Shown here: positions 21,049 to 64,000 of the stretch, piece after piece
Numbering within the stretch: position 1 is the stretch's first letter
How the letters are laid out: every line of letters begins with the position of its first letter
Source of the DNA: a virus
DNA: 64,000 nucleotides
Virus record (IMG/VR): IMGVR_UViG_3300045988_176106
Strand: one strand, 5' to 3'
The notes under the pieces: model-generated
The model's input: only the letters and a program-made list of their open reading frames with translations
The model's database searches: none
What the model was told of the DNA's origin: nothing
Program-made: the position numbers and the translations under genes

Positions 21049-21059
21049 CCTCTATTGTA

Positions 21060-21574: not shown

Positions 21575-21600
21575 TTTCTCGGGTTTGTGTGTACGGAGTA

Positions 21601-25896: not shown

Positions 25897-25912
25897 TTTT
25901 AATTCTCCTTAA

Positions 25913-30539: not shown

Positions 30540-31190
30540 CCTTAACACACAAGCGCATAAATTGAGAGTATAATTCGCCATGTTAACTCGTTGAGGTTAG
30601 TATCTAGTCGGGATAAACTACGGCATCGGAACTAAAAGAGAGTTGACCTTATACCAAGTAGCTCATAGAATAATCGGTAGAGGCCGGTAGCGAAAGTATA
30701 ATGATCTCCCAAGATGTGGGCAAGCCTAGCTAGGGAGGTATCGAAAACTGTTTGTTGAAGTGGCGTAATTCTCCCTGTGTAAGCTCCCTTACTAAAAGTA
30801 ATACATAAAGAATTATGAAAGTTGGGCAGTATAAAAATAATGACCTGTTGCAAATAACGGATTATCCTCGAAATCGAGCCGTATGGTCAGACAGACAACT
30901 TTAGGGTTATATAGATAGTGCAATGAGATATAACCTAGTAACTTAAAGTTACTCGACTACAAATATAATGAACCAGAACTTAACAGAGTGTTGCGAAATA
31001 ACGACACTTGGAGTAATCAATATCCTGTTAGTTAAGACACGACAAAGTGTAATAGCTTACTTCTGATGATCACTTGGATCACTGCTTGATAATCGCAAAG
31101 GAAGTTACGAAAGTGGAACTGGGAATAACATGGCAGATACAGCTATATCTTTTTAGATGAAAGCCTTGCTTTGCTAGGCCTAATTGTATC
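30540..31190. ncRNA. Candidate structured RNA of unknown class (strand tentative, plus favoured)
   Basis: A 1.1-kb gap without a credible ORF. Helices at 30706-30737 (CTCCC/GGGAG), 30905-30935 (8 bp), 30938-30952 (6 bp), 30987-31008 (has a G-U valid only on the plus RNA), 31067-31081, and 31103-31120 (GAAA tetraloop). Confidence 0.35.
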
Positions 31191-34993: not shown

Positions 34994-36098
34994 TAACGAA
35001 ACATTAAAACAGCGTAAATCCAAGGCGTTTCAAAGAAAAGTTGATCAAATAGATTTACAATGGGACCAAACTGGTAGAGGTTCATCCTTTAAAAAGAATA
35101 TAGATTATGCTAAAACTATATTCAAGGTTGATAATAATGGTGCTCTTAATACAGGTCTTAGATTTGACAAAAGGAAGATAACAGGTGGATTTGAAGATTT
35201 GGCATCAAAATATGACAGTATGAAAAAGTCTGGCATATCAAATATAGAAGATGTCATGAAGATAAGGTCACAATCTGCAGCAAGGGAACAAACATTTGCA
35301 CAGAGATGGCTTGGTTACGGACATAAAGATTTTCAAACACTTACAACTCCAAGATCAGGGGGAGGTATTGGTAATTTATATATGATGCCTTCTTATGAAG
35401 CATTTGCAACAGCCGGTGTTGGAACTCACTTAAATAGGGCAGCAGCATTCGCATCTGGTATCGGGTTAAAAGATGACCTTATGAACTCAATAGGTGTTGC
35501 AACTGCACATCAAAAGAAAATTATGGCATCAAAAAGTGTTGGCAAGCTTGACAAGTTATTTGCAGGTGTTGCGCCAATGATGGGGGCAGTGTTTTCAGGT
35601 GCAGAAGCATTACCATATTTGACAGGAGAGAAAGAGTCCACCATTACGGATAATGCTATAGTTAGCGTTGCAGGAATGGCTTTATCTTTAGCTGCAGGAA
35701 CATATGGATTTAGGGTTGGAAAAGAACTTACACATGCTGCAACATCGCTTATTCCTAAATTCTCAAAACAAGGTCAAACATTAGGTAAGTTAAGTAAGGC
35801 CCGTGGAGGCCTTAAAATGGCAACTGGTGTAACAGGTGGTCTAGCTGGAGGTATTGGCGCTACATTGGCTGTAGATATGGCTGTAGACATGTTTAAAACA
35901 GCTTCTGACCAGAATAACTCTATCAATAGAGTTAAGAACGCACTGTATAGAAACGATATGGTTGGCAATACATCTGTAAACACTAATCAGCTGTTAACTA
36001 GTAGACAAAAGGCTATGTCAGCATTAAGTAAATCATCATTGAACGATAAAGCATATATAATGGGCAACGAAGCAGCAATACTAAAAGGAATATATTAA
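34983..36098 (+). CDS. Gly/Ala-rich protein (glycine zippers)
   Basis: 371 aa, GVTGGLAGGIGATLAVDMAVDM. Confidence 0.8.
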   Translation: MSIDNETLKQRKSKAFQRKVDQIDLQWDQTGRGSSFKKNIDYAKTIFKVDNNGALNTGLRFDKRKITGGFEDLASKYDSMKKSGISNIEDVMKIRSQSAAREQTFAQRWLGYGHKDFQTLTTPRSGGGIGNLYMMPSYEAFATAGVGTHLNRAAAFASGIGLKDDLMNSIGVATAHQKKIMASKSVGKLDKLFAGVAPMMGAVFSGAEALPYLTGEKESTITDNAIVSVAGMALSLAAGTYGFRVGKELTHAATSLIPKFSKQGQTLGKLSKARGGLKMATGVTGGLAGGIGATLAVDMAVDMFKTASDQNNSINRVKNALYRNDMVGNTSVNTNQLLTSRQKAMSALSKSSLNDKAYIMGNEAAILKGIY

Positions 36099-38050
36099 TG
36101 GGTGTTATACCAATAGTTGATGAAAGTAAAATAAAATCTCCTGTAGAAATAGATATTTCAGATGATAAAGTTGCAGGCAGCATACTTGGACTATATGAAA
36201 CATACTGGAAAGATTATCTAAAGAAAAAGAACTATAATACAGATCCTAATGAAATGTGCAGAATCTGCCAGATGAATCAGATTAAAAAGTTTGGTGAGAT
36301 AACAATAGAATGTAGTGGTCCAAAAACAGTTGTAGGCAAAATGCCAGATGAGATTAAGGCTAATTTCTCAGACGAAGAACTTGATAAGATAGAGCAAACT
36401 AAAAATCCATATGCATGGGCAGATGCAAATATAGATATAGATCAGCCAGACCCTGATAAAAGACTTTTTGCAAGAAGATGGCATCAAGAAATGATGGTAG
36501 TATGCTCTGCCAAAAAGAAAACTATTAGATGTGGACGACGTGCCGGTAAAACATTTGGTTTAGCAATAGACATCGTAGACAGACTAATAAAAAATGAAAA
36601 CTACCAAATCCTCGTAGTGACCCCATTTGAATCTCAAGCAAAAGAGATAACAGATACAGTAAGAAAACTATTAAGAAAAATAAATCCAGAAATAGGATCA
36701 TGGAATTCTTTGGTTACACAGTCTGTAGCATCACCTTATCAAAAGATAACACTAAAAAATGGTTCTACATTAAAAGCATTTACAGCAGGTAATGATGGTG
36801 GATCAATTCGTGGTCAAGGTGCAAACTGGCTTATAATTGACGAGGCAGACTTTTTAACTAAGGCTGCATTTGACTCTGTAATAGCAATTCTGATGGATAA
36901 AAAAGACACAGAATTTACATGTACGTCTACACCTATGGGTGAGAATATATTATTCAAATTATCAAATTCTAAAGAGTATAAAGAATTCCACTTCCCATCA
37001 TTCGTAATCCCTCATTACAGTGATGAGATGGATAAAGACCTTAGGTCTTCTACCTCTGTAATGGGCTATATACAAGAGATCCAAGCAGAGTATGGTGTAG
37101 CAGATAATGCAGTTTTCCAAACTGAATTTATCACAAGAGCAGAAGAGACAAAACTATCAGCACCAATAGTTGATGTACTGATGAATAGACAAGATTATAT
37201 ATTAATACTTGGATGTGACTGGAACGCGGACAAAGTTGGTACAAGAATATGTATTGTTGCATATTCTAAAAAAGAGGATAAGGTTTTTGTATGCTCTATG
37301 GACAATGTGAGAAAAGAGGGGTGGACTCAAGTTGCAGCTGTTGAAAAAATAAAAGAGCTTAATAGGCAGTATATTCCTGACTTTATATTTGTTGATGAGG
37401 GTTTCGGTGAAGCAAACGTGCAACAATTAAAACTTGTTGCGCTAGACTCATATGGAAAACTTCCAAAGGATCATCCAGATTTAAGATTGGCGAATGTACA
37501 ACCAGTAAACTTTTCATCTACATTGGACCTAGTGGATGTTGTTACGGGAGAGATACGTAAAAAATACTATAAAAACTTTATGGTAGAAACAGTGAAAAGG
37601 ATGCTTGAAAAAGGTCTTATATCGTTAAATAATAAGTTAGCAGAACCCATAGTAGAGCAAATGAAGGGCTATGTTGTAAAATCTAGGAATGCTTCTGGAA
37701 GAGAGATATATGAAGCTAAGAACCCAGAAGTTGGTGATCATGACCTAGATGCCTTTATGATAGCGGTATGCGGCCTTCACATGAAATATGAATCAATCCT
37801 TGACACTAGAAGATATTCAGAGTATACAATTTTGCCTTTTGAAAAACAGACGTCTAAGGGTTATAATAGTCAAACTACTATAGAAAAAAGAAAAACAACT
37901 GATGAATTATCCAGAGATGCTAAAAAACTTTATGGAAGAGCTGGTTTAGTTAGACCAAGTTCTGGAAGAGCTGGTAAGCTTATTACTAGAAGTAGTGCAT
38001 ACGGTAAATTCAAGGATTATAGATCAAATATGAGTAAAACATATAGATAG
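36098..38050 (+). CDS. Terminase large subunit
   Basis: 650 aa. Walker A is CGRRAGKTF, Walker B is NWLIIDEADF. Nuclease acidic residues at ILGCDWN, FVDEGFGE, GDHDLDAFM. Confidence 0.9.
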   Translation: MGVIPIVDESKIKSPVEIDISDDKVAGSILGLYETYWKDYLKKKNYNTDPNEMCRICQMNQIKKFGEITIECSGPKTVVGKMPDEIKANFSDEELDKIEQTKNPYAWADANIDIDQPDPDKRLFARRWHQEMMVVCSAKKKTIRCGRRAGKTFGLAIDIVDRLIKNENYQILVVTPFESQAKEITDTVRKLLRKINPEIGSWNSLVTQSVASPYQKITLKNGSTLKAFTAGNDGGSIRGQGANWLIIDEADFLTKAAFDSVIAILMDKKDTEFTCTSTPMGENILFKLSNSKEYKEFHFPSFVIPHYSDEMDKDLRSSTSVMGYIQEIQAEYGVADNAVFQTEFITRAEETKLSAPIVDVLMNRQDYILILGCDWNADKVGTRICIVAYSKKEDKVFVCSMDNVRKEGWTQVAAVEKIKELNRQYIPDFIFVDEGFGEANVQQLKLVALDSYGKLPKDHPDLRLANVQPVNFSSTLDLVDVVTGEIRKKYYKNFMVETVKRMLEKGLISLNNKLAEPIVEQMKGYVVKSRNASGREIYEAKNPEVGDHDLDAFMIAVCGLHMKYESILDTRRYSEYTILPFEKQTSKGYNSQTTIEKRKTTDELSRDAKKLYGRAGLVRPSSGRAGKLITRSSAYGKFKDYRSNMSKTYR

Positions 38051-39329: not shown

Positions 39330-41222
39330 ATGGAATTAGAAAGAAAAGTGTCCTCTACGGACAACACTGCATATGCTACTGCTTATGCACAACAAATTGT
39401 TGACCATTTTGCAAAAGCTTTGCAAGAAAACGGATGCTTAATTCAGGTTCCAGCATCTTTATATATAGAATTAGATAATCTTCATAATCAAATAACAGAT
39501 TATATAGATAGTGCTATAAATTCAGCATCATTAATAGATGATGGGTCTAGTAATGCAAAACAAGATCAAAATGGTGCCACTAATACTGAAGATAGTAATA
39601 CAACTGAAAATGGTATAACTAACGCAGCAGTTGCATCTGCTATAAGAAAAGTAAGTAATGACTGTTTTAACTGCTCAATTCCGAAACCAAAGTTTGACTT
39701 CTCTGGCATATTTGATAGATTAATAGCGGATATACAATCTGCGCTAAGTCAATTTGAACATATGTTTAAATATAAAAAGTCAAATGTATGTCAATACTCA
39801 TACTTCTTTTCGTATTTATGTATACCAGACCTTTTAAAACTTTTATCTCTTATATTAGCAGCGATAGTAAAATTAATGTCAAATATTAATTTGCCTAGAA
39901 TAACTATTGCAGCTTTCATAAATGGAATTTTATCTGCTATAATAGAGGCTTTGGTAAAGAATATATCTATACTTGCTAGATTCGCACTTACTCCTGTATT
40001 GTGTATATTAGATGCAATTGATTCCATAATCGGCCAACTGCCAACACCAGAAAATATAAGACAATCTTCATCAGAAGATCTTAAAAAACTTGGCGTTAGT
40101 GAAGAATTCCTAAATGGAACATACGATACAAATCTTAAAAAACAGACTGCAAGCCTAAGAGATGCTTATTCATCAAGAGTAAATAATCTTTCAAATTCTG
40201 CAACATCATCTATTCAATCTTACGCAGAAGAAACATTTGCTCCACTTAAAAATACAATAAATAAGAGTGTAGAGTCTTTAAATAATAGCATAGCTGAATT
40301 AGCAGCATTATTAAATCATTATTCATGTGAACCATCTAGATCTGGAATATCTATATCAAATTACTTATCGAATATTTCAGAATTAATGGCACTGGCAAAT
40401 CTATTAAGATATATAATAAGATTTAAAGCAGGAAAGAGTGCGTATGAAAAACTGTGTAATACTCCAGTCGATGGAAGTAACGCACTAAATGATAATGATG
40501 TAGGTGATATAGCTGGAAACCTATCTGTTGAAAATATAGGATCTATAATAGCAGAGACTATTGAGAGCGATGTTGAAATAATAACAGATGACAAAGGTAA
40601 TCCAACTGCATTTATAGTTGATAAAGATAATAAGAATAAGGATTCTAATCCAAATAATTTATCATTTTATTCATGTAATCTTGAGGACTTTACAAATTCT
40701 GTAAAAATCCCTAATATAATAAAAGAGATAGTTGACAACGGTATTCCAACTGATAATATACCTGGACTTCCTAATGGTGGATGGACAATAACAATAACTC
40801 CTGAAGATAAATTTACTACTCCACCAGATGATAAAATGATAGTGCCTATACGTGATGATAATGGATGGGATCTTCCAGATCATATTAGAAATATCGTATC
40901 ATTGATAAGTAAATACGACGGCACAGTAAAAAACCCAAAAACAGAAGCAGATATAATCTTTGTAAATGATGATTATATTAATAAACTTATAAATAAGAAG
41001 ACTCCTAGTCTTCCTACAAATAATGTTACAAATCCTGATGGTACAACAACTGCTATAACTACAAACGGTACAGAAGGTATAACTCCAGTAAGAGAAAGAG
41101 AATCTGTTCGTAATATCGTTGCAACATTGTCCCCAGGTAATAATCTCGGCATCAATATGTTAGATTGTGCTAGTGATGAAGAGTTGAACAATATATTGAA
41201 AAACCTTGGCGGAGATATTTAA
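39330..41222 (+). CDS. Hypothetical virion-module protein
   Basis: 630 aa, hydrophobic block YFFSYLCIPDLLKLLSLILAAIVKL. Confidence 0.8.
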   Translation: MELERKVSSTDNTAYATAYAQQIVDHFAKALQENGCLIQVPASLYIELDNLHNQITDYIDSAINSASLIDDGSSNAKQDQNGATNTEDSNTTENGITNAAVASAIRKVSNDCFNCSIPKPKFDFSGIFDRLIADIQSALSQFEHMFKYKKSNVCQYSYFFSYLCIPDLLKLLSLILAAIVKLMSNINLPRITIAAFINGILSAIIEALVKNISILARFALTPVLCILDAIDSIIGQLPTPENIRQSSSEDLKKLGVSEEFLNGTYDTNLKKQTASLRDAYSSRVNNLSNSATSSIQSYAEETFAPLKNTINKSVESLNNSIAELAALLNHYSCEPSRSGISISNYLSNISELMALANLLRYIIRFKAGKSAYEKLCNTPVDGSNALNDNDVGDIAGNLSVENIGSIIAETIESDVEIITDDKGNPTAFIVDKDNKNKDSNPNNLSFYSCNLEDFTNSVKIPNIIKEIVDNGIPTDNIPGLPNGGWTITITPEDKFTTPPDDKMIVPIRDDNGWDLPDHIRNIVSLISKYDGTVKNPKTEADIIFVNDDYINKLINKKTPSLPTNNVTNPDGTTTAITTNGTEGITPVRERESVRNIVATLSPGNNLGINMLDCASDEELNNILKNLGGDI

Positions 41223-43006
41223 TGGACGCATTAGACGCTCACATCATAATGGAGACTAATTATCTACCTATTGGTGATAGAAAAATATTTTCCAACGCTG
41301 TAAAAACTGCCAATAAGATTCCTAAAAGAAGATTAGATACACCAGGATATTCATATTTTGGATCTAGAAGATATTATAGGAATGACGAATCTGGTTATAA
41401 AGGTCATGAGTATGACCTGTTTGAATATTCCAGAATAATAGATACAGAAGCAATTGTTGCTAGGGCTTTTGAAAGAAAAAGAGCCCTAATATTTAAAAAT
41501 GGATATTTCTTCAAATCAAATAATGATGCTAATATAAAATATATTAAGCAAAGATTAAGAGAGATAGAATATGTATCCGGCGTTACATTTAAGTCTTTTG
41601 TTGAGGAATTGACAAATAACCTTATTATGTTTCATAATGCATACGTTGTACTTGTAAGAGATAAAGACAAGTCAAACGGAAAAACTGTATTTATAGATGG
41701 CAATGAAGTTGAACCTATAGCTGGATGGTTCAATCTTCCAACTGAATCAATGCAGCGGAAGATAAAACCAAATGGTGAAATATCTGTATACAGGCAATAT
41801 ATAGATTCTAATAATTTTAGAGTCTTTAAGCCAGAGAAGATTGCTCACCTAACCTATAATAAACGTACAGGGTTTACTATGGGTACACCGCCATTAGAGT
41901 CTGTAAAAGACGATATAATGGCATTAAGAAGAATCGAAGAATCAGTAGAAACATTAATATATAAGTCCCTGTTCCCACTTATCCACGTCAAAGTTGGTAC
42001 AGAGTCAAAGCCGGCAACTATATTAAGCAATGGTGAAGATGAAGTGGCTTCTATGACTAGTGTTATGTCTGATTTGGATGATTATGGTGGTGTAACTACA
42101 AACGAAAGAGTTGAGATAAAAGCTATAGGTGCAGAATCTTTAGCTCTTCGTGTTGAGTCATACCTAGAATATTTCAAAGATAGAGTAATGCTTGGTCTAG
42201 GTGTTTCAGATCTTGATATGGGTATAGGTGATTCATCTGGTAAAGCTACAGGTCAAATCGTATCTCAGACACTAAAAGAAGCAGTAATAAATATGCAGCA
42301 CGTAATTGCTGACTTTATTACACATAGATTCTTTAAGCCTCTTCTAGTAGAGTCTGGCATGTACTCTGCAGAGTATGAAATATCTGATGAAGATCTAGTT
42401 TCGTTTGAGTTTAATAATGTAGATCAGGATTCTCAAATAAAATCAGAATCTCACATATTGAATATGTTCAATAGCGGACTACTTACATTTAATGAGGCTA
42501 GAAAAGAGAACGGATATAGAGAATTATCTGAAGAGCAAATAAAGGATATAGGTAAAGAGAAGGAATATATACTTCCTCCAACAGAGGTTGACTTAAATAA
42601 AGCCTCTGCTGAATCTACTAGAATATCTGCACATGCAGCATCAGTTGCGTCAAAAGAAACTAATAGTTCTGGAAATTCTACAAAAAGTGATGGAAGTAAA
42701 TCTGAAACAAGATCAAAAGTTTCTCCTACAAACCAGTATTCTGACTCGTTAGAGTTATGTTCTCCAATAGATTTGCTAGATAGTATCGCAAAATCTAAAA
42801 GTGATATTAATATAACCTCTCAAACGATATCAAATTATTTAAAATGCAGCATTGACAAAACGAACATATTTTCAGATAATATAATAGATGATATAAGTTC
42901 TCTTGCAGCATTAGAAATATCAGAGTTAAGAGATAACGAAAATACAATAAAGGATATTGACAATATCCTATTTGACACGTATATTACATTAGGGGACTTA
43001 GTTTGA
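41222..43006 (+). CDS. Portal protein (by position and size)
   Basis: 594 aa, between the terminase region and the protease/scaffold. No motif-level proof. Confidence 0.6.
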   Translation: MDALDAHIIMETNYLPIGDRKIFSNAVKTANKIPKRRLDTPGYSYFGSRRYYRNDESGYKGHEYDLFEYSRIIDTEAIVARAFERKRALIFKNGYFFKSNNDANIKYIKQRLREIEYVSGVTFKSFVEELTNNLIMFHNAYVVLVRDKDKSNGKTVFIDGNEVEPIAGWFNLPTESMQRKIKPNGEISVYRQYIDSNNFRVFKPEKIAHLTYNKRTGFTMGTPPLESVKDDIMALRRIEESVETLIYKSLFPLIHVKVGTESKPATILSNGEDEVASMTSVMSDLDDYGGVTTNERVEIKAIGAESLALRVESYLEYFKDRVMLGLGVSDLDMGIGDSSGKATGQIVSQTLKEAVINMQHVIADFITHRFFKPLLVESGMYSAEYEISDEDLVSFEFNNVDQDSQIKSESHILNMFNSGLLTFNEARKENGYRELSEEQIKDIGKEKEYILPPTEVDLNKASAESTRISAHAASVASKETNSSGNSTKSDGSKSETRSKVSPTNQYSDSLELCSPIDLLDSIAKSKSDINITSQTISNYLKCSIDKTNIFSDNIIDDISSLAALEISELRDNENTIKDIDNILFDTYITLGDLV

Positions 43007-45583: not shown

Positions 45584-46807
45584 ATGTCTACAACAGAAGA
45601 AAAACTGAATATCAGAGACGAACTACAGACCTTACACTCTCTGTTTAAAAACAACGGTCGAGATATCACTGGTGAAGTGATGTCAATTAAAGATACATTG
45701 GCAACTCCGAATATCGCTACAATTATGAAGCGTGTTATTGAGGAAGTTGTTCTTGAAGGTATCGAGCCAAATCTTATTGGTCAATCATTGCTGCAACGTA
45801 TCGAATTCAATGGTCCATATGTTACTGAAGTTAAATTCCGTACACTAGGCGCAATTGATGTTGGTGATATCTCTATGGCGGAAGGCCAAGAATATCCAGA
45901 ATTCAGCACCACTAACGGTGGTGGACAAGTAAGCGCCATTATCGGTAAATACGGTTTGGCTGTCCGAATCACTGAAGAAATGCTGAATAACAACCAATGG
46001 GACGTTGTTGGTTATACCCTGCGCGAACTTGGTAAAGCTATGGCTCGTGCACGTGAAGAAAACATCTTCAATGTAATTAATAACGCGGGTGTTGTTGTAT
46101 TTGATAACTTGCACCCTAACCAATCTCTGTTAGGTCGTACAACTGGTCGTGATCTGTCTGGTGCTGGTAACGGTTCATTTACAGCTGACGATATGTATGA
46201 TATGTATGCATCAACTCTGGAACGCGGATTTACTCCTGACGTAATTCTGTGTCACCCATTGGCTTGGGCAACATTTGCTAAAGATCCAGTTCTGCGTGAA
46301 TATGCTCTGCAAGGTGGTGGTTTGAATGACTGGTTCAACACAATGCCTAATGCTAACGTAGGTCAAGGTAAATTTATTCCTGAAGTTTGGCGCAATGCTA
46401 ACCGCCTGTCTGGTGATACTGCTTTCAATCCTACTGCAAATGAACGCGTTGGTACACAAGAAAGTACATTCAACTTCCCATCATACTTCCCTGGAACTGC
46501 TGGTCTGCGCATTATAGCATCTCCACATGTACGTTTTGATCCAGTAGCCAAAACTACTGACATCATCATGATTGATACTAAAGAACTTGGTGCTCTGTGT
46601 GTTATCGAGAATCCTACTATGGATGAATGGGATGACCCAGCACGAGACATCAAAAAAGTTAAAATCCGTGAACGCTATGGTATTGCAATCTTTAACGAAG
46701 GACAAGCTATTTCTGTTGCTCGCAATGTAAGCATCGAGCCTAATGAAATTGTTCTGCCTCCTCAAGCAATTGTTAATAATATCCCACGTATTCAACGTAA
46801 AGACTAA
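45584..46807 (+). CDS. Major capsid protein (HK97-fold expected)
   Basis: 407 aa, follows the protease/scaffold, G+C-richer, and a strong terminator follows. The call rests on synteny and size. Confidence 0.7.
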   Translation: MSTTEEKLNIRDELQTLHSLFKNNGRDITGEVMSIKDTLATPNIATIMKRVIEEVVLEGIEPNLIGQSLLQRIEFNGPYVTEVKFRTLGAIDVGDISMAEGQEYPEFSTTNGGGQVSAIIGKYGLAVRITEEMLNNNQWDVVGYTLRELGKAMARAREENIFNVINNAGVVVFDNLHPNQSLLGRTTGRDLSGAGNGSFTADDMYDMYASTLERGFTPDVILCHPLAWATFAKDPVLREYALQGGGLNDWFNTMPNANVGQGKFIPEVWRNANRLSGDTAFNPTANERVGTQESTFNFPSYFPGTAGLRIIASPHVRFDPVAKTTDIIMIDTKELGALCVIENPTMDEWDDPARDIKKVKIRERYGIAIFNEGQAISVARNVSIEPNEIVLPPQAIVNNIPRIQRKD

Positions 46808-55442: not shown

Positions 55443-56768
55443 ATGGAAACACTTTTAAGTAGAAATACTGATACTAAAAACAATCTAAAAAAACAGATTG
55501 CAGATATGAAAGCAGTTCCAGAATCATATATAGAAATATTAGGCATAGAAGAAGACAAAAATGGTGAATATGGATCAATTAATGTTAAATATTCGTATGC
55601 TGGCGAGGAACATACTGTATCTGTATTAAGATCAATTTTAAACACAATTTCTATATATAGTCCTTCAAGAGGAAGGACATATGACCAGGAATACAGTATA
55701 TTTTCTGATATGGATCTAAATAGTTGGACAAAAGATAAACATCTTAAACTTGTATGTGACCAGCTAGATATACCAAGTAGTGAGGTACACCTAGAAGATA
55801 TATCCATAAGTTTTAATTATTATAATGATATAGTAGTTGGTGCAATTATAGCCGCAAATGAAAATTCTCAATATACGTGCGGCGAATTATATACTAGAAC
55901 AGTATACTATGCTCAGAATTATATTAATGCATATACAGATAATATAAAAGAGTTATCACCAAAAACATTTAGGCATGATTATGTTGAGGAGTATATAAGA
56001 CTGTATAATGATTACCCTGGAGACATCCCATCTGATAAATTATTAGAGTTAGAAAATAAAAAAATACAAGAAGCTGGTAGAGAATCGTTTTTTGTAAAAA
56101 CTCCAGGATATACATATAATCTAATGGAAACATATTATAAGGATGATTTAGCTATACATACTGGAGCTATATTAGAAAAATATTTATTGGGGACACCTAG
56201 CGGCAGGAATATTTATAGCACAAGCATAGCATATTCATGGGGGGAATATAAATGGGGCGTAGAACACTGTCTTATTGCTGGATTAAGAACAGATGGTGGA
56301 AATGATAATATATTCGGAATGTTTTCTACAAGAAAATTTAATATTACAAGAGATTTGGTTCAGGTTATGCCAAAAAGAGGGTATATCAGAAATAGTACAA
56401 CAAACAAATCTATATATCTTTCAAAAAGTAATAACTCTAATTATTATATAGAATCTATAAAGCATATTGAGGGATCAAAGTTTAAGCTTAGATCAGACCC
56501 GCATTCTGGTACTGTTATATACTATTCTGGAATAAAGTTAAAAGATTCATATAACGATAATGAACTTGAGGAAGTTAGAAATTCTATTATAATGGGAATA
56601 GAAGACCAACTATATAATGTGTATAATCTTCCAAGATCAATTGTTAGACTTGTATTCACGAGTCAGATTAAACTTAAATATAATGATAGTGTATCATTAG
56701 ATGTAAGTTATAGTGATACAATGATGAAATCTGGAATATTTACTATTAAAATAGTATATGAGAAATAA
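55443..56768 (+). CDS. Structural-module protein
   Basis: 441 aa. Confidence 0.8.
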   Translation: METLLSRNTDTKNNLKKQIADMKAVPESYIEILGIEEDKNGEYGSINVKYSYAGEEHTVSVLRSILNTISIYSPSRGRTYDQEYSIFSDMDLNSWTKDKHLKLVCDQLDIPSSEVHLEDISISFNYYNDIVVGAIIAANENSQYTCGELYTRTVYYAQNYINAYTDNIKELSPKTFRHDYVEEYIRLYNDYPGDIPSDKLLELENKKIQEAGRESFFVKTPGYTYNLMETYYKDDLAIHTGAILEKYLLGTPSGRNIYSTSIAYSWGEYKWGVEHCLIAGLRTDGGNDNIFGMFSTRKFNITRDLVQVMPKRGYIRNSTTNKSIYLSKSNNSNYYIESIKHIEGSKFKLRSDPHSGTVIYYSGIKLKDSYNDNELEEVRNSIIMGIEDQLYNVYNLPRSIVRLVFTSQIKLKYNDSVSLDVSYSDTMMKSGIFTIKIVYEK

Positions 56769-56770
56769 AA

Positions 56771-57442
56771 ATGAATAATAGAATGCTTATAAACTCTATA
56801 TCAATAGGATTTAAAGACGAGACAAAAACAACGCTTACAGGTGTTGTTTTTGATTTTGATCTTAATCCATTTTATGCATCAATAAGAGATATAGAAATAT
56901 CTTTTCCAACTGAAATATCATTTTCGGAGGATTTTATAGTTCGTTTAAATGAAATGATATTCAGAAAGTCTGTATGGATAAGTAATTACATAAAAAGAAA
57001 AAATCTCAAATTGACATACGAAGAGATATATGCGATATGTAGAGACTATGTTATATGTGCTATAGTTTCTGATGTTGCAAATCTTTTATATGGAACATCA
57101 TCTAAGAATGAATCAGTTAAAAAGATTCTTGGCGATTTTACTGTAGAAAGAACTAAATCATCTAATTCTGGTAATAATAATTCTAAGATAGCCGATGAGG
57201 CTAAGGAATGTGCCGAGTCTATATTAGCATTAATAGACGATATGTCCAGAGTTAAGGCTATGGGATTTGTAAAAGGTGAAAATAACTGTGGAAATAAATC
57301 TAGTAATAGATTATGGCATAGTCCTAAATTTCTTAGCAAAATGCCTATAGGGGCAAATAAGATATTAGAGTCTGACGGAAAACTATATAAGACTGGATAC
57401 GGATATGGCAACGAATCAGAGCCCCTTTATACAAGAAATTGA
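56771..57442 (+). CDS. Structural-module protein
   Basis: 223 aa. Confidence 0.8.
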   Translation: MNNRMLINSISIGFKDETKTTLTGVVFDFDLNPFYASIRDIEISFPTEISFSEDFIVRLNEMIFRKSVWISNYIKRKNLKLTYEEIYAICRDYVICAIVSDVANLLYGTSSKNESVKKILGDFTVERTKSSNSGNNNSKIADEAKECAESILALIDDMSRVKAMGFVKGENNCGNKSSNRLWHSPKFLSKMPIGANKILESDGKLYKTGYGYGNESEPLYTRN

Positions 57443-57926
57443 TCTAAGACATGAATTCCAGATGCTGTTTTCTGGAGGAGAGTTCGTAAAAAAGGGTGAG
57501 ACTTACATATATAGAAAAGTAAGAATCAAAGATGGCTCAAAAGAGAAATGTTCATGTTGGAATAATATATCAAATGAGGGCAGATCTGACTGTCCTCATT
57601 GTGATGGGATAGGATATCTATGGGATGATGTATTGCTTAAGGGTCATATGTGGATGCCTAGAAATACACTAATGCCGGGAGAAAACTCTTATAAATCTTA
57701 CGGAGGTAAGGCCGGCAGACTCAACAACTCTGAATGGTTATTGGCAACATCTTATTCTTTAGACTTTTCTGATAGAGATATAATATACCGCCCAGAAGTA
57801 GATGATAGTGGAAAAGTAATACTTCCAATAAAATCAAAAAAGACATATTATATAACATCTGTATATAGATATGGTTTCGATTTTGATAGGGAAGATTTTA
57901 CAGTCTTAGGGTTATCAGAAGTATGA
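57405..57926 (+). CDS. Neck/tail-module protein with a DnaJ-type CxxCxGxG zinc finger
   Basis: 173 aa, CSCWN...(x11)...CPHCDGIGY. Confidence 0.75.
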   Translation: MATNQSPFIQEIDLRHEFQMLFSGGEFVKKGETYIYRKVRIKDGSKEKCSCWNNISNEGRSDCPHCDGIGYLWDDVLLKGHMWMPRNTLMPGENSYKSYGGKAGRLNNSEWLLATSYSLDFSDRDIIYRPEVDDSGKVILPIKSKKTYYITSVYRYGFDFDREDFTVLGLSEV

Positions 57927-58681
57927 CAATACAAGTAAACAATGAAAATGATTACGCACTAGATCGTCTCCATAGAATGTCTATTGATAATAGCTTTGTT
58001 GTTACAAACCCAGACGAAGTTTTAAAGAATTATAGGAAATTGACGATTGACAAATTCATAGTATTCCTGTATTCTTTACTAAGCAATAAAGAGATGATTT
58101 TAGAAAACCCTGAAAAGGGTATTGGGCCAAAAGATAGAAATAAATTCTCATTTACAGAGATTTATCCAGATTACGGCGATGTAACTAACACTCATAACAA
58201 TGTTACTTTTGAAATATGGAGCAGAGCTCCGGCAACATTAAAAGCTACAGCAGTATCAACAAATTCCACTAAATGGAATAAGCCAAGGACATTATTTGAA
58301 AAGAAAATGTCAGATGGAGATACATATGAGTTTAAAGAATTTATATATGAAAATATATTAAAATTTACAGTTTGGTCAGAAAAAGCAGATGATGCTAGAA
58401 GATTAGCAACATCATTAGAAAACTTTTTTGCCGATAATTATCATGTATTAAGGATGCATGTAGGCGGACTATATTATGAGGGCAGAAGCCCAACAATATT
58501 ATCCTCAGACTTTGGTTCAAAAAGATTATTCGGAATACCCTTGGTTTATAAAGTAATAACTGAGGAACCTGGATATACACGACGTGGAAATATAGTATCT
58601 ATCGATACTTCATTACAAATAGTTGACTCTTTATTAAACGAAGAGCTCGAAGAACTACAAAAAAGAATAAATAAAAATTAA
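57923..58681 (+). CDS. Tail-module protein immediately upstream of the sheath gene
   Basis: 252 aa, ATGA overlap. Confidence 0.8.
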   Translation: MTIQVNNENDYALDRLHRMSIDNSFVVTNPDEVLKNYRKLTIDKFIVFLYSLLSNKEMILENPEKGIGPKDRNKFSFTEIYPDYGDVTNTHNNVTFEIWSRAPATLKATAVSTNSTKWNKPRTLFEKKMSDGDTYEFKEFIYENILKFTVWSEKADDARRLATSLENFFADNYHVLRMHVGGLYYEGRSPTILSSDFGSKRLFGIPLVYKVITEEPGYTRRGNIVSIDTSLQIVDSLLNEELEELQKRINKN

Positions 58682-58696
58682 TGGAGCATAATATTT

Positions 58697-60943
58697 ATGG
58701 CTACATATGAAAATCTACCAGGCGTAAATCTGGAGCTTTTAGACGGTAATTTAAGAGTAGACGCTACATCAGATGCCAATCGTGTCTTAATTATCGGTCG
58801 TGCTGAAACAGGTACATCTGGAAGAATATATAATGTTGGTGACACCAACAAGGCTGCTAATACATTTGGCCCAGAATCTCCTCTGATCAGGAAGATGTCT
58901 GAGGCTCGCTTAGGTGGTGCAACAGAAGTATCTCTATATCGTATTGGTGGATCTCCAGCATCATTAAATGGTCTATGGGGTGAAGGTTCTCAACTTGCAA
59001 CAGTAGAAGAATCTGTTGTAGCTGGTGACAGCTTCCGTATTTATTGCGGTCCTCGTCCTAGCAACGATGGTAAATCATGCTTGATCGTATTCAAGGGTAA
59101 AAATATTGTTTACTCTAACGTTCCTGGTTCTGAAATTGACCTTAACCAAGTAACAGTTACAGGGTTTGATGAAACAACAGGTGTTGTAATCGGTACTCCT
59201 ACTGAACCTGTTCTGATGTCAAACATTATCCCAGTAACCAAAAAAGGTGAATCAAATCACATTAGCAATGGCGTTAATACAGAATTTAGACTTATTGGTA
59301 CAACAAAAACTGATAACGTTACAAATGTTGTTGTTAAAGTTAATGAAGAAGAGAAAACATCTGGTACAGATTACACTCTAACAAAAGACACTTTAAATAA
59401 CTACTGGAAAATAAAATTCAATTCTGCACAAGATGCACGTGCAAAAATTAATGTAACATATGACTATATCGCTACTGGTAATGAAGCTGGTGCAGCTGTA
59501 TTCAGCGGCGACGGCGCTAAAACTAAATTTGTTTTAGCAGGCACTCATCCTAGCAGCAATGTTACCGTTGACCGTGTTGTAGTTGCTGGTGTAGATAAAA
59601 CATCTGAAGCCACAGTTGAAGACAGCGACGATAATCTAAGCAAAGCGCTTGTACTGCAAACTGCTCCAGGCGATCAAGAAGCAATTGCTGTTGACTACAC
59701 TATTGCTAAAACAGGATCTTCAGTTCCTGGTACATTTAAAGAAGGTAAAGACAGCCTGAACTGTACATGGAAAGAATACTACGAGATTCTTTACGCTGGG
59801 CTTAAAGATCTTGAAACAGTAAATGCAATGTCTGTTGTTACAGACTACGCTATCGTTGATGCACCAAATATTGCATCTGGTTCTACTGCCAAAGACAGAC
59901 TGGAATATGTATATGTTTCAGAAGAAGATGGCGAATACAAATTCGAATGGTCTACATCTAAAGTTGTATATCGTAAAGGCAGTGGTACCACATTGAACTC
60001 CTCTGAGGCAGATATTAACGGTAACGGACAACCTATCGTTTACAGACGTTATCATGAGGCTGATTTTGCACACTTGCTGGCAGAATTCGCATACAATATC
60101 TCTGAAAATGAACAATTTACACTTGTAACAATTGGTACATCAGTTCCTCAAACTACATCTACATTTGCAGTTAACAAATGGGTTGGATCTGCTCCTACCT
60201 ATGATGCCGCTGGTAATATCATCACTAACGGTACTGGTCTGCTTGGTGTTCGCCATATGGTAGAACGTGCTGACCAAGCTCAAGGTTACTACAAAACTTC
60301 ATCTGGCTTCGTTGACGGTGTTGTTCAAGTAGATAGTAATGGCGCCAACATTGACATTGGTAAATACTTATCAGTTGTTCCACAATTAGTTATTACTCCA
60401 GCTAGCTCATCTACTGGTACATCAACCAGAATCACAAATGCTGCAGCTATCTATGCTGGTCTATTAACAACAATTGTAGCTGGTAACTCTACTACAAATG
60501 CTCCTCTGCCAAGATTGAGCCTGCCATTTGAGATGAAGAAAACCAAATTGAACCAACTGTCTAGCGCCGGTTATGTAACATTCCAAACTAAGAATAACAC
60601 TGTTCGCGTAGTGTCTGGTGAATTGGCTACTAACATAAATTCAGACTATGATTATGTTTCTACATCAATCATCATCAACTCTGTTATTACTGGTATTCGT
60701 AACGTATGTATTCCTTACATTGGTAAGGGTCTAACAGAGGCAACTAAAGTTGCTCTTGATACAGCTATCGAATCTGTACTTGACCAAGCAGTTGCTGCAG
60801 ATGCAGTAGTTAAATATGCTCACGTTGTTAACCAACCTACTGTTATCAACGGAAAAGGTACTTTAAACGTAGCGTTAACAATCGTTCCAGCCTTCGAGCT
60901 TCGTGAAGTTAACGTAGCAGTTAAATTAGCTTTAGATCTTTAA
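58697..60943 (+). CDS. Tail sheath protein
   Basis: 748 aa. N-terminus YENLPGVNLELLDG...RVLIIGRAETG...FGPESPL...LYRIGG and C-terminus GYVTFQTKNNTVRVVSGELAT are sheath-like. The tube gene follows. Confidence 0.8.
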   Translation: MATYENLPGVNLELLDGNLRVDATSDANRVLIIGRAETGTSGRIYNVGDTNKAANTFGPESPLIRKMSEARLGGATEVSLYRIGGSPASLNGLWGEGSQLATVEESVVAGDSFRIYCGPRPSNDGKSCLIVFKGKNIVYSNVPGSEIDLNQVTVTGFDETTGVVIGTPTEPVLMSNIIPVTKKGESNHISNGVNTEFRLIGTTKTDNVTNVVVKVNEEEKTSGTDYTLTKDTLNNYWKIKFNSAQDARAKINVTYDYIATGNEAGAAVFSGDGAKTKFVLAGTHPSSNVTVDRVVVAGVDKTSEATVEDSDDNLSKALVLQTAPGDQEAIAVDYTIAKTGSSVPGTFKEGKDSLNCTWKEYYEILYAGLKDLETVNAMSVVTDYAIVDAPNIASGSTAKDRLEYVYVSEEDGEYKFEWSTSKVVYRKGSGTTLNSSEADINGNGQPIVYRRYHEADFAHLLAEFAYNISENEQFTLVTIGTSVPQTTSTFAVNKWVGSAPTYDAAGNIITNGTGLLGVRHMVERADQAQGYYKTSSGFVDGVVQVDSNGANIDIGKYLSVVPQLVITPASSSTGTSTRITNAAAIYAGLLTTIVAGNSTTNAPLPRLSLPFEMKKTKLNQLSSAGYVTFQTKNNTVRVVSGELATNINSDYDYVSTSIIINSVITGIRNVCIPYIGKGLTEATKVALDTAIESVLDQAVAADAVVKYAHVVNQPTVINGKGTLNVALTIVPAFELREVNVAVKLALDL

Positions 60944-60952
60944 TAAAGAATA

Positions 60953-60971
60953 GGAGAGGGTAATCCTCTCC
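60953..60971 (+). terminator. Hairpin after the sheath gene (weak U-run, possible attenuator)
   Basis: GGAGAGG-gtaat-CCTCTCC. Confidence 0.45.
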
Positions 60972-60991
60972 TTAACAATCAGGATAAAATT

Positions 60992-61666
60992 ATGTCAGAA
61001 TTTAAGGAATACCACAGCTTTGGTGGTGTAGATATCACACCTGTATTCGGTAGCAAAGTATTCGGCGAAATGTCAATGGTTTCTTACCGTGTAGACAGAG
61101 AGAAAGCCCCTGTATTTACAATGGGTTCTCCTGATGCCAAAGCAATTGCACGTGGTAAACGTTATGTTTCTGGAGCTTGTGTCTTCACTGTATTCGACCG
61201 TGACTCTCTGCTTGAAGCGATGGATGAACAAGATAATACAACCGTTTATCTAAGCAAACATGAGTCTGCAAACTACCAACGTGGTGGTATTTACAGTCAA
61301 ATTAATGGTGGTAAATATCAGGACGGTTATGCATCTACTGCTGCTTCTGCTGCAACTAGATCAGGCGGTACAGTTGCTGCTGACTACAACTTCACTGCAA
61401 ACAGTCTTACTTCTAATACAAACATCAATAACGCATTGCGTACCAAAACGAAAGCTAACCTTGCCGACCAAGTATTGGCATTTGATATTAGCCTTGTTGC
61501 TACAAATGAATATGGTCATACATCTAAGATGGTAATCTACGGTGTAGAGCTTATGAGTGAAGCTGGTGGTGTGTCTGTTGATGACCTTGTTCTAGAAAAA
61601 CAAATGTCATTTATTGCTAAACGTGTTTCTAACTGGATGGCAATTGACAGCTATAATAGCAAATAA
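60992..61666 (+). CDS. Tail tube protein
   Basis: 224 aa, directly after the sheath gene, G+C-richer. Its N-terminal 90 aa are paralogous to the next ORF. Confidence 0.7.
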   Translation: MSEFKEYHSFGGVDITPVFGSKVFGEMSMVSYRVDREKAPVFTMGSPDAKAIARGKRYVSGACVFTVFDRDSLLEAMDEQDNTTVYLSKHESANYQRGGIYSQINGGKYQDGYASTAASAATRSGGTVAADYNFTANSLTSNTNINNALRTKTKANLADQVLAFDISLVATNEYGHTSKMVIYGVELMSEAGGVSVDDLVLEKQMSFIAKRVSNWMAIDSYNSK

Positions 61667-61693
61667 TAATTACTAATCCTTTCGGAGCCACAT

Positions 61694-63085
61694 ATGTCAT
61701 ACGACAATATACGAAAGGGAGAGTATCATTCAGTGGGTGGCGATGCCACCCACATTATTTTTAACTTTCCTGGATACGGCGCACTGTATATGGGAAGTTT
61801 GATATCTCTCTCATATCAGACATACAGGGATAAAGTACCTGTCTACAATCTAGGAAATACTAATATTGATGGGTTTGCTATTGGGAAGAGATATGTAGCT
61901 GGCTCTATTATAAAAGCAATGTTTCTAAATGATGACCTTAGGGCATTCTTAAATGAAGTATCAAAAGATATAGGTCTAAATAAAGATATAGATTCTATAT
62001 ATCAATTAAAATATGAAAATTCTAAAACATATCATCATCTTATGATGGATGATATATTGCCATTCGATATAATAATAGTATTAAGCTCTGAGTACGGAAA
62101 TTTTTCAGTATCAGAAGTAATATATGGCGCAACACTTATAAATTCTGGTCAAGTACATTCTATACAAGACCTTATTGTTGAGAACACAATATCATTTGTA
62201 GCTCGTGATGCTAGACAGACTCTTGAAAGTTTGAATTCTACAAAGTACAATATAACTACAGGTGGTGCAGGAACAAAGGCATCTGAACTCTCAGATACAT
62301 CTAATACAAAATACAAATCAGATAAATCAAATAGTAATCCAGATCAAGAATGGTTTAAAGATGCTTTAGAGAAATATAAGTATCAGGCAAATCTTGATGG
62401 ACAACTTACTGCAGATGAGCAGAAAGTTATATCAACATTATCCCAATTGGCAGGATTAGGAGAAGATCCTAATTATAATTGGGAATCTTTACCGGCTGAA
62501 TATAAAATATATAAAAATGACCCATATACAAATGGCGGCACTAAAAAATATGTATATCCAAAATCTCAAGATATAGATTCATCATCTCTTACTGCACTAG
62601 ATAAAGGCGATAAATTTATAGTTGACGATGGTGATACATTAGTGTGGACAGGGGGTGTAAAAACATCTACGGGAAGTGACTATAGTGGTAAATTTACTAT
62701 ACGTCTCTTAGGAATAGATACTCCTGAAACAGAACATAAGGACCTGAAGCCACAAGAGTATGGATATAAAGCATCAGATTTTATGAAAGAGTATGTCAAA
62801 TCTGGCAAATGGGATCAGGATGTAAGAGATGGTGTAGTTAAAATTGCTGGCACAGATGTTTATGGCCGTACACTAGTGTATAATTATAATTATGTACTAG
62901 CAGCTGTATCTGCTGGCACTGCACATTATATGGACGGCGGTGTCAAACAAATAGGCGAATCAGAGGATAGAAGAGCCAAGCTCAATGAAGCCGCATTGGA
63001 AGCTAAAAGAGAAAAACGTGGGTTATGGGGAACTGGCAATACAGTAATAATGCCGTCTGTTTGGCGTAAAAATAATAAGAAATAG
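61694..63085 (+). CDS. Tail-tube-fold paralog fused to a staphylococcal (micrococcal) nuclease domain
   Basis: 463 aa. The N-terminus EYHSVGG...ISLSYQTYRDKVPVYNLG...AIGKRYVAGS aligns with the tube protein EYHSFGG...MVSYRVDREKAPVFTMG...ARGKRYVSGA. The C-terminus (~62596-63040) has DGDT...IRLLGIDTPE...YGYKASDF...DVYGRTLVY...EAKREKRGLW, i.e. the SNase blocks. Confidence 0.85.
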   Translation: MSYDNIRKGEYHSVGGDATHIIFNFPGYGALYMGSLISLSYQTYRDKVPVYNLGNTNIDGFAIGKRYVAGSIIKAMFLNDDLRAFLNEVSKDIGLNKDIDSIYQLKYENSKTYHHLMMDDILPFDIIIVLSSEYGNFSVSEVIYGATLINSGQVHSIQDLIVENTISFVARDARQTLESLNSTKYNITTGGAGTKASELSDTSNTKYKSDKSNSNPDQEWFKDALEKYKYQANLDGQLTADEQKVISTLSQLAGLGEDPNYNWESLPAEYKIYKNDPYTNGGTKKYVYPKSQDIDSSSLTALDKGDKFIVDDGDTLVWTGGVKTSTGSDYSGKFTIRLLGIDTPETEHKDLKPQEYGYKASDFMKEYVKSGKWDQDVRDGVVKIAGTDVYGRTLVYNYNYVLAAVSAGTAHYMDGGVKQIGESEDRRAKLNEAALEAKREKRGLWGTGNTVIMPSVWRKNNKK

Positions 63086-63093
63086 GATAGTGA

Positions 63094-63918
63094 ATGAGTA
63101 CAATAACCGCATTAGTTGATAGAGATGATGGAACTGTGGATACAGTTTATGCATCTGAAAATAGAGATGGAAGTGTATCATTGACTACCGTAAACTCGGG
63201 GACTGGTGAAACAAGAAGTGGAGCCAGTCCAAAAGGAACTGCTAGGGCAGCTAATACTTCTAATAGTTCAAATAAGAATTCTAAAACAGGCACATTGTAT
63301 CATGCAGATGTAGACGAGATAGAAGTTAAAGGTAAGAGACAACCAAAAGGTCATAGCTTCGTAAACGGCCTGTATAATAAATACTATTCATCGAGTGACT
63401 GTATGATCTATATAGAAGATATATGGCTTGATAAAGTTTCTGGCATAGGTATAAATGAGTCACTGTCTAGTGTTCCTATATATACAATAGGAAATTCTAG
63501 GTACAGTTTTCTATCAAGAGGAAACAATATAGTAACTGGTTTCATATCTATAAATAAATGTACTAAAGATTATTTGCCAATAGTTCTGGAAAATATAAAT
63601 AAAAATTCTGAGTTTAGAAAATTGACCCCATATGAACAAATGCAGCTTACATCTGAAGAGTTGAGAGTATACAAAGAAAAAGAAGCTGCAATGGAATCTG
63701 GTAAGGTGTCTAATAAATCTGTATTAGACTGGGCAGACTTAGATACATTTAATATAACTATATCATACAATAACGGAGACCCAACTATGGCTGGTGTAAA
63801 ACAATATGTTGATATACAAGAAATAAGAATAATAGGGTTCGAAACTAGTATAGATATAGGAAGTGATGGACAACTAATAGATGGCTACAGATTTATAGCT
63901 AAAGAAGTAAGAGGATAA
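63094..63918 (+). CDS. Possible third tube-fold paralog
   Basis: 274 aa. ...ESLSSVPIYTIGNSRYSFLSRGNNIVTGFISI echoes the S-x-x-x-VP[VI][YF]-x-x-G...G-x-x-x-V-x-G core. The similarity is weaker. Confidence 0.75.
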   Translation: MSTITALVDRDDGTVDTVYASENRDGSVSLTTVNSGTGETRSGASPKGTARAANTSNSSNKNSKTGTLYHADVDEIEVKGKRQPKGHSFVNGLYNKYYSSSDCMIYIEDIWLDKVSGIGINESLSSVPIYTIGNSRYSFLSRGNNIVTGFISINKCTKDYLPIVLENINKNSEFRKLTPYEQMQLTSEELRVYKEKEAAMESGKVSNKSVLDWADLDTFNITISYNNGDPTMAGVKQYVDIQEIRIIGFETSIDIGSDGQLIDGYRFIAKEVRG

Positions 63919-63919
63919 T

Positions 63920-64000
63920 ATGTCATTAACAGTAGACGAAGTAAAAGGCCTAAGTACATTACCGGAAGATGATCTTACAGTTGAAGAAGCAATAGAGATA
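63920..64000 (+). CDS. Partial CDS (N-terminus only)
   Basis: ATG 63920 with GAGGA upstream. MSLTVDEVKGLSTLPEDDLTVEEAIEI... is open to the window edge. Confidence 0.6.
   Translation, partial: MSLTVDEVKGLSTLPEDDLTVEEAIEI

Follow-up and report, generated by a model that had tools for sequence, protein, structure and literature searches.

The window analysed here is a stretch of 64,000 nucleotides from the IMG/VR virus record IMGVR_UViG_3300045988_176106, and its phage identity follows from genes for a large terminase (36098-38050), a portal (41222-43006) and a major capsid protein (45584-46807). Near the end of the window lies a gene in which a tail-tube-fold domain is fused to a staphylococcal nuclease (SNase) domain. 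A first-pass annotation had proposed this fusion at 61694-63085, and homology, Pfam and fold searches bore it out. The gene stands after those of the tail sheath and the major tail tube protein and before that of a third tube-like protein, with 27 nucleotides separating it from the tube gene and 8 nucleotides from the third paralog; a GGAG ribosome-binding site at 61684-61687 is located 7 nucleotides 5' of its open reading frame (ORF). By every sequence and structure criterion tested, the encoded protein is a member of the SNase family, and it also belongs to the tube-fold superfamily. The coordinates of the locus are collected in Table 1.

A tube-fold protein joined to a staphylococcal nuclease domain

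When 5.8 billion proteins were searched, 69 protein clusters shared the full-length architecture, with identities of 34-95% and lengths of 438-502 amino acids (aa), and many of these clusters came from metagenomic phage contigs of 170-190 kb. Because the same full-length architecture is kept in 69 clusters, the possibility that the fusion is an artefact of assembly or of a frameshift was ruled out. The fusion was found in 0/50,697 GenBank phage records, among which the nearest phages share the N-terminal domain only (Acinetobacter phage ME3, Bacillus phages 0305phi8-36, KLEB27-3, WH1 and Edson, and Moorella phage MTATph1). Megablast of positions 56000-64000 against GenBank phages gave no match, and therefore the phage has no close cultured relative. 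A scan of GTDB species genomes for the fusion, as a clue to a prophage or host, yielded 16 pattern matches, of which 0 were confirmed. Public annotation calls the protein only a 'nuclease-like protein' or 'staphylococcal nuclease homologue' (e.g., 'MAG TPA: nuclease-like protein [Caudoviricetes sp.]'), and the names of cluster members pointed to no host. Neither a tube-fold/SNase fusion nor a virion SNase of phage tails turned up in our searches of the literature.

The N-terminal domain resembles the major tube protein encoded just upstream. As had been claimed for the N-terminal ~175 aa, the two proteins are alike, residues 10-171 of the fusion aligning with the 224-aa tube protein at 29% identity (E=5e-18), and the three motifs that had been quoted are present in both (EYHSVGG / EYHSFGG, SYxxxRxKxPV and GKRYVxG). 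The alignment needs ~59 gap positions, which come mostly from a low-complexity insertion in the major tube protein; this Ser/Ala/Thr/Asn-rich insertion of ~60 aa, at aa ~85-160, is absent from the fusion paralog and is possibly a surface loop facing the sheath. The families phrog_9206 and phrog_34314 were matched by the fusion and by the major tube protein alike.

Structure comparison with Foldseek gave a consistent picture. The full-length model matched tail tube chains of Staphylococcus phage 812 (8q01, 8r5g). A second model, which covered aa 1-185 and was built on a deeper alignment, had a mean predicted local distance difference test score (pLDDT) of 65, and its top 50 PDB matches were all tube, Hcp or tube-initiator proteins (probability 1.0; TMt up to 0.54). 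The best of them was the phage 812 tube protein (E=1.6e-5), and further matches were Afp/PVC tube proteins, chains of the 223-224-aa Afp7/Pvc7 class, tube-like chains of the E217 and Pa193 baseplates, the tubes of phiCD508, SPP1, lambda and P1, and Hcp proteins. In BFVD, which holds predicted viral structures, gp141 of 0305phi8-36 was the best match (A7KUR5; 1.5e-10), together with gp30 and gp32 of ME3, gp179/gp180 of phage G and many annotated tail tube proteins. These models support the assignment of the N-terminal domain to the tube fold, which is typified by a beta-sandwich, an extended beta-hairpin and a single helix. A PDB profile search with the deeper alignment was dominated by SNase columns and was uninformative on the tube domain.

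The C-terminal domain had been placed at 62596-63040, which is correct and corresponds to aa 302-449. Pfam PF00565 was matched at aa 335-445 (E=1.7e-13; 51.4 bits vs a gathering cut-off of 21) over model positions 1-105 of 107. Searching the PDB with phmmer returned S. aureus thermonuclease at ~4e-8 over aa 330-449, and the family profile matched PDB thermonuclease at 5e-15 over SNase residues 10-144. The structure model, consistent with an OB-fold beta-barrel with three helices, matched SNase crystal structures with a Foldseek E of ~5e-6 and TMt of 0.63-0.66. All five SNase motifs quoted earlier occur in order: DGDT, RLLGIDTPE, YGYKASDF, DVYGRTLVY (aa 388-396) and AKREKRGLW. A word-indexed search with the SNase domain alone gave 6 weak matches and did not reveal the donor of the domain. 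T4-like cyanophages often carry SNase 'endonuclease' genes that stand alone; the sole non-cyanophage match, MT835813.1 ('Bacteriophage sp.'), is an unannotated high-GC scaffold that proved unrelated and was dropped.

We aligned 21 diverse members of the family, which are 36-95% identical, and compared them with the thermonuclease. D314 aligns with the Ca2+ ligand Asp21 of SNase, DGDT being equivalent to Asp19/Asp21/Thr22, and R337, D342, T343, P344 and E345 correspond to Arg35, Asp40, Thr41, Pro42 and Glu43. T343 is replaced by Ala in some members, and its SNase counterpart ligates Ca2+ via the backbone. R392 is invariant and Y390 and G391 are at least 90% conserved. Inactivating substitutions of catalytic residues, which had been named as a finding that would argue against the nuclease, are not the case, as D312, D314, T315, R337, D342, E345 and R392 are invariant across the 21 members. 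Judged by these residues, the SNase active site is intact, with the pattern of an active enzyme and not of a decayed domain. Such invariance of Ca2+ ligands and catalytic residues in members as distant as 36% identity, amid neighbours that vary, is what one would expect of an active enzyme.

The two domains are joined by a linker of 125 aa (aa 176-301), which had been described as Ser/Asn/Lys-rich. This description holds for aa 176-215 (S 20%, T 17%, N 12%, K 12%) but not for aa 216-275, where helices are predicted. The helical part is predicted to form a hairpin, with block-mean pLDDT values of 73-80 over aa 221-250 and 63-75 over aa 251-270. Across the 21-member alignment, conservation is highest in the N-terminal domain, and the linker varies in both sequence and length. 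By analogy, aa 216-275 are possibly the counterpart of the C-terminal helical 'handle' or helix-rich domain of tube initiators.

One could also interpret the C-terminal domain as a structural filler or DNA-binding module, in which the SNase OB-fold fills the baseplate or holds the DNA end in the manner of LysM/BH1a modules and catalysis is irrelevant. The C-terminal domains of tube initiators are often structural, with the LysM domain of Mu gp43 and the 812 gp113 handle as examples, and SNase-like domains are known to serve as non-catalytic binding modules, e.g., in Tudor-SN. However, catalytic and Ca2+-ligand residues that stay invariant to 36% identity amid varying positions are difficult to reconcile with this interpretation, and a long disordered tether is unsuited to a rigid filler. 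We consider it improbable.

Table 1 Features of the fusion gene and its neighbours in the window.
Feature	Coordinates	Strand	Evidence
Tail sheath protein, 748 aa	58697..60943	+	phrog_16991 'tail sheath', E=1e-68
Major tail tube protein, 224 aa; paralog of the N-terminal domain of the fusion	60992..61666	+	phrog_9206, E=1e-44
Whole gene, tail-tube paralog fused to SNase nuclease, 463 aa	61694..63085	+	ATG start; 69 full-length homolog clusters
N-terminal tail-tube-fold domain, aa 1-175	61694..62218	+	Homology to upstream tube protein; phrog_9206 and phrog_34314; Foldseek
Terminator-like GC-rich hairpin and U-tract	61733..61763	+	GTGGGTGGC-GAT-GCCACCCAC, then ATTATTTTT
Disordered low-complexity linker, aa 176-215	62219..62338	+	Composition; pLDDT <50; variable alignment columns
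Predicted helical segment, aa 216-275	62339..62518	+	AlphaFold helices 216-234, 240-252, 268-275
SNase (staphylococcal/micrococcal nuclease) domain, aa 302-449	62597..63040	+	Pfam; PDB thermonuclease; Foldseek; pLDDT 80-95
DGDT motif, aa 312-315	62627..62638	+	D312, D314, T315 invariant in 21 members
RLLGIDTPE motif, aa 337-345	62702..62728	+	R337, D342, P344, E345 invariant in 21 members
YGR motif, aa 390-392	62861..62869	+	Y390 = Tyr85, R392 = Arg87
Third, more divergent tube-like paralog, 274 aa	63094..63918	+	Tube-family hidden Markov model, E=1.5e-8

Gene order around the fusion and an intragenic hairpin

The genes around the fusion are arranged as in phage 0305phi8-36, in which ORF139 (tail sheath) is followed by ORF140 ('tail tube'), ORF141 ('tail tube paralog', 502 aa), ORF142 (558 aa), ORF143/144 (tail chaperonins) and ORF145. 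The major tube protein, for which 161 homolog clusters were found, is syntenic and orthologous with gp140, annotated 'tail tube', and the third paralog is the ortholog of gp142 (BLASTP E=3e-9) and of ME3_32, the latter matching the model of the fusion, and thus the tube fold, in BFVD at 8e-8. ME3 has the same gene order, its paralog being a protein of 244 aa without an extension. Pfam found no domain in the major tube protein, the sheath protein, the third paralog, or gp140/gp141.

Because the window ends before the chaperone and tape-measure genes, the order beyond the third paralog was read in relatives. Six metagenomic relatives (L003, L006, L038-L041) carry, in order, the sheath, tube and fusion genes, a gene of 201-306 aa, two genes of ~165-185 aa, which are the chaperones, and a tape-measure-sized gene of 1274-1683 aa. 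In these six, the third tube-like paralog separates the fusion from the chaperones and the tape-measure-like gene.

Several side observations concern these neighbours. The third paralog has an N-terminal extension of ~90 aa rich in S, T and N, and in its ortholog gp142 of 0305phi8-36 (558 aa) a large insertion matches PG_binding_1 weakly; it seems that insertions are tolerated in both paralog slots. In two relatives the tape-measure-sized genes (L006 13213-18069; L039 7384-9398+) contain intein splicing domains (PF14890), one of them with a faint LAGLIDADG match. In phrog_9206 and for ORF141 in RefSeq NC_009760, the tube/tube-paralog family is labelled 'major head protein', and the original GenBank record reads 'tail tube paralog'; the former label is probably a propagated misannotation.

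According to the GenBank annotation, ORF140, 141 and 142 of 0305phi8-36 are virion proteins identified by mass spectrometry. By analogy with the ortholog gp141, we infer that the fusion protein is present in the virion. If it were not, the fusion might be a cytoplasmic or released phage nuclease that uses its tube-like domain just for hexamerisation, and the stand-alone SNase genes of T4-like cyanophages mentioned above, being non-structural, are in line with this. In every relative, however, the fusion gene lies within the tail operon; in addition, the ortholog gp141 is a virion protein and the N-terminal domain is the most conserved part of the protein. A non-virion nuclease is thus highly improbable.

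A terminator-like hairpin lies inside the fusion ORF and begins 67 nucleotides past the stop codon of the tube gene. It has a 9-bp stem and encodes V14-G-G-D-A-T-H20. In every related locus examined, with proteins 36-99% identical, the stem halves GTGGGTGG and CCACCCAC were nucleotide-identical, with changes limited to the loop and closing pair. Among positions that encode the same amino acid, 46/49 in the hairpin also share the codon, vs 41-49% elsewhere in the gene, and the hairpin is built from codons seldom used by this phage (GTG 4%, ACC 8%, GCC 10%). The motif VGGxxTH, which is specific to the SNase-fusion clade, seems to be constrained by RNA structure. Relatives that lack the SNase domain carry canonical intergenic terminators right after the tube gene, e.g., L004, a contig from a sewage metagenome (GGCCGCAAGGCC, then a T9 run), and ME3.

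The hairpin probably dampens expression of the fusion gene together with that of the genes downstream. These features suggest a leaky terminator, which may result in a high tube-to-paralog ratio, and such a ratio would fit the low-copy ring that is proposed below. An intragenic hairpin of this kind would be a case of RNA structure dictating protein sequence and offers a testable mechanism for tube-to-paralog stoichiometry.

Some features of the window are distant from the tail genes. A HOLDH RNA (Rfam RF02997), a large structured non-coding RNA, is present at full length at 30582-30952 (+) with 322 bits, just over the gathering score of 319; a literature search on HOLDH found only unrelated papers. 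A permuted, two-piece transfer-messenger RNA (tmRNA) was detected at 9053-9479 (-) and 8139-8212 (-) (RF04321, 118 bits; RF01849, 105 bits). ARAGORN predicts ANDNVYMVRAAA as its tag peptide, and a tRNA-Ile(TAT) adjoins it; a phage tmRNA might be helpful for guessing the host. The block at 16000-26000 has a higher G+C content (0.39-0.41 vs ~0.30 in the flanks) and is coded on the minus strand, and its large ORFs (1116 aa and 479 aa) gave no PHROG match.

Variable cargo on the second tube paralog and a proposed role in the tail

A HMMER search with aa 1-180 of the fusion matched 1,566 representative clusters at E up to 1e-3. From the 150 best listed of these clusters we chose 80 long homologs (355-919 aa) and took a census of their domains. 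In most of the 80, the tube domain is at the extreme N-terminus and is followed by a C-terminal extension of 200-750 aa. Pfam identified PG_binding_1 after the tube domain in 31/80, and the other C-terminal domains were SH3_3, CarboxypepD_reg, Cadherin-like, Big_1, Fn3_assoc and CHB_HEX_C, so that Ig-like or carbohydrate-type domains are part of the cargo, as well as one phage lysozyme. SNase fusions accounted for only 4 or 5 clusters at 50% identity among the matches listed. The lysozyme fusion (P0262, Pfam PF00959; L004 8001-9164, sewage metagenome) is found at the equivalent place, with the tube gene on one side and the third paralog on the other; its called start is probably too late, as 237 nucleotides upstream are uncalled. 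The second tube paralog of the 0305phi8-36-like lineage is, in this sense, a modular carrier of variable C-terminal domains, and the modules other than SNase belong to types that bind the cell envelope or act upon it. This modularity provides a simple rule for finding more virion-delivered activities in metagenomic phage genomes.

The fusion protein is most likely a minor structural protein of a contractile tail. The first-pass idea of a nuclease that rides on the tail on a tube-like module gains support from the fold searches, the conserved catalytic residues, the position in the tail module and the virion annotation of gp141. A place in the sheath-covered tube trunk was rejected because an appendage of 290 aa per subunit would not fit between tube and sheath, and also because the terminator-like element precedes the body of the fusion gene. 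By analogy with tube initiators, the protein probably forms a low-copy, baseplate-proximal ring instead of tube trunk.

We tentatively propose that the N-terminal domain, a diverged tube copy, would assemble into a single hexameric ring between hub and tube, where the tube ends on its baseplate-proximal (distal) side. From the outer face of this ring, the flexible segment and the helical 'handle' would lead to a Ca2+-dependent SNase-type endo/exonuclease, and a virion would thus display about six nuclease domains at its tail tip. SNase-family enzymes, which cleave DNA and RNA to 3'-phosphates, need Ca2+ far above the cytoplasmic free level, as known from the biochemistry of S. aureus nuclease. 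The nuclease would be made in the late-infected cell and stay silent there because cytoplasmic free Ca2+ is far below the need of an SNase-type enzyme; therefore no immunity protein would be required, which would explain why no immunity-like gene is found immediately downstream of the fusion, where the third tube paralog comes next. The nuclease would become active after the virion has left the cell and would cut the DNA or RNA met by the tail tip, be it extracellular DNA in matrix or mucus, nucleic acid at the cell surface, or material within the envelope during passage of the tip. The PG-binding and lysozyme modules found at this very position in sister phages follow the same logic of a role outside the cytoplasm. 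That the SNase domain acts on nucleic acid outside the cytoplasm, either on extracellular DNA of matrix and surface or on material met while crossing the envelope, is a reading we hold with slightly less than even confidence.

The ring might instead sit at the other end of the tube, as a head-proximal tube terminator or neck component, or the nuclease might be an exposed decoration that clears host DNA from the progeny after lysis. Tube-fold proteins also form tube terminators, e.g., T4 gp3, and initiators cannot be told apart from terminators or trunk proteins by Foldseek; moreover, the 125-aa tether could expose the nuclease to solvent. Gene order speaks against this alternative, since the fusion gene is located on the tape-measure/baseplate side of the tube gene, near the chaperones, whereas the usual place of neck and terminator genes is taken by four virion-protein genes (55443-58681) upstream of the sheath gene. 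PG-binding and lysozyme cargo of the sister proteins would also make little sense at the neck. We regard a head-proximal or decorating role as having only a slight chance.

A further interpretation is that the fusion is an injected effector: a protein of the tube ring would leave with the tube tip or tape measure, enter the host with the genome and, as infection begins, break down either DNA or RNA of the host or DNA belonging to resident or competing elements. The architecture is the same as that of specialised Hcp effectors with C-terminal DNases (PMC6730261; PMC8262886). In addition, the tube initiator gp43 of Mu is its DNA circularisation protein, which binds DNA ends and so has a DNA-directed function (PMC11915804), and the tube initiator of phage 812 travels through the wall with the tube tip (PMC13433997). 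The conserved active site would also suit this interpretation. On the other hand, the Ca2+ need of the SNase family is far above cytoplasmic free Ca2+, an unspecific nuclease released alongside the phage genome would endanger that genome, and the sister cargo (PG_binding_1, lysozyme, SH3, Ig-like) acts outside the cytoplasm. Nor was there any sign of a modification of the genome that could shield the phage DNA, although no search aimed at it was made. Injection therefore appears rather doubtful to us. Similarly, the broader idea of a swappable 'effector slot' (empty, PG-binding, lysozyme, adhesin-like or nuclease) that would be the phage counterpart of specialised Hcp/VgrG effectors, its SNase form being injected on the tube tip to attack nucleic acids of host or competitors at penetration, is a possibility we regard as unlikely but worth keeping in mind.

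Several points weigh against our proposal of a tip-borne nuclease acting outside the cytoplasm. The confidence of the N-domain model is moderate (mean pLDDT 65) and the Foldseek TM-scores are 0.4-0.54. The support from mass spectrometry belongs to an ortholog that is 31% identical and has a different C-terminal extension. PG-binding-type domains of tube initiators (LysM in Mu, pyocin R2 and Afp7) can be purely structural, which makes the argument from envelope-directed cargo weaker than it appears. The distal location of the ring is drawn from analogy and from the nature of the sister cargo, and a proximal, terminator-side position is possible. An unspecific nuclease beside the DNA exit channel would endanger the phage genome unless it is held outside the channel, and Ca2+ dependence is assumed from family membership. 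The distal-ring location, the copy number, the Ca2+ gating and the substrate are all features that we infer.

If the clearing of extracellular DNA is true, the phage would be a naturally 'DNase-armed' one, which bears on the movement of gut and sewage phages through DNA-rich matrices and biofilms. If the nuclease is injected, it would be a phage analogue of the nuclease effectors of type VI secretion systems (T6SS) and a new device for host takeover or against competitors. In the literature we found no description in phages of a virion-delivered, tube-borne nuclease effector.

Comparison with known systems

The closest counterparts are gp141 of 0305phi8-36 and gp31 of ME3, which have an orthologous N-terminal tube-like domain (31% identity, E=6e-21, and 34% identity, E=4e-20, respectively) at the same gene position. 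Unlike the fusion, gp141 carries an unrelated C-terminal extension of 330 aa without a Pfam match, ME3_31 has essentially no extension, and neither contains a nuclease.

T4 has two tube-like paralogs in a row, gp48 and gp54, to which the fusion and the third paralog can be likened. The build of the fusion, with a tube-like N-terminal domain, a disordered segment (176-215) and helices (216-275), would fit that of tube initiators, without homology shown to known handles or LysM. In the tube initiator of phage 812, gp113, an N-terminal beta-barrel is combined with a C-terminal helical handle, which extends along the exterior of the hub; at the tip of the tube, gp113 is pushed through the wall (PMC13433997). 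In gp43 (N) of Mu, the DNA circularisation protein of that phage, a tube-like domain is followed by a flexible loop and a helix-rich domain with LysM (PMC11915804). The gene of gp43 comes after the tape measure gene, whereas the fusion gene comes before the tape measure. Afp7/Pvc7-type chains were among the Foldseek matches of the N-terminal domain. The known tube initiators (Mu gp43, 812 gp113, T4 gp48/gp54 and Afp7/Pvc7) have no enzymatic nuclease domain, and no sequence homology to the fusion has been shown for them.

Among nucleases, S. aureus thermonuclease (Nuc; PDB 1STN) shares with the fusion the fold and the full set of D21, D40, T41, R35, E43, R87 and Y85. The identity is ~27-29%, and the fusion, unlike the secreted Nuc, lacks a signal peptide and has its nuclease linked to a structural domain of the virion. 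It also carries an insertion (SGKWDxDV...) absent from Nuc.

The same overall architecture is known from bacterial weapons. Ma et al. 2017 reportedly described Hcp-ET1 with an HNH-DNase, Hcp-ET3 with a pyocin S3 DNase and Hcp-ET4 with a colicin DNase. These specialised Hcp effectors of the T6SS combine a tube-fold protein with a C-terminal nuclease domain within a contractile injection machine (PMC6730261). The likeness of an Hcp-fold domain with a C-terminal toxin domain is at the level of architecture only, and Hcp structures were among the fold matches. The nuclease differs (HNH/colicin-type vs SNase OB-fold), as does the setting (bacterial weapon vs phage virion); moreover, Hcp-ETs are followed by immunity genes, whereas no such gene was seen downstream of the fusion, and the site of action of Hcp-ETs is the cytoplasm of the target. 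Membership in the Hcp-ET family was rejected, as the fusion lies in a phage structural operon (terminase, portal, capsid, sheath, tube) without an immunity gene. The fusion is an analogue, not a member, of Hcp-ET.

The fusion would resemble the tail-tip enzymes of myophages, such as T4 gp5 lysozyme and the 'cleaver' domain of the phage 812 hub, in which a protein of the baseplate core carries the enzyme and contraction of the tail delivers it to the substrate (PMC13433997 for 812). They differ in that the substrate of the fusion would be nucleic acid, not peptidoglycan, and in that its carrier is a tube paralog and not a hub or spike. Known phage tail-tip enzymes have cell-wall or capsule substrates, and a nuclease of the tube or baseplate core would represent a different kind of virion-borne activity.

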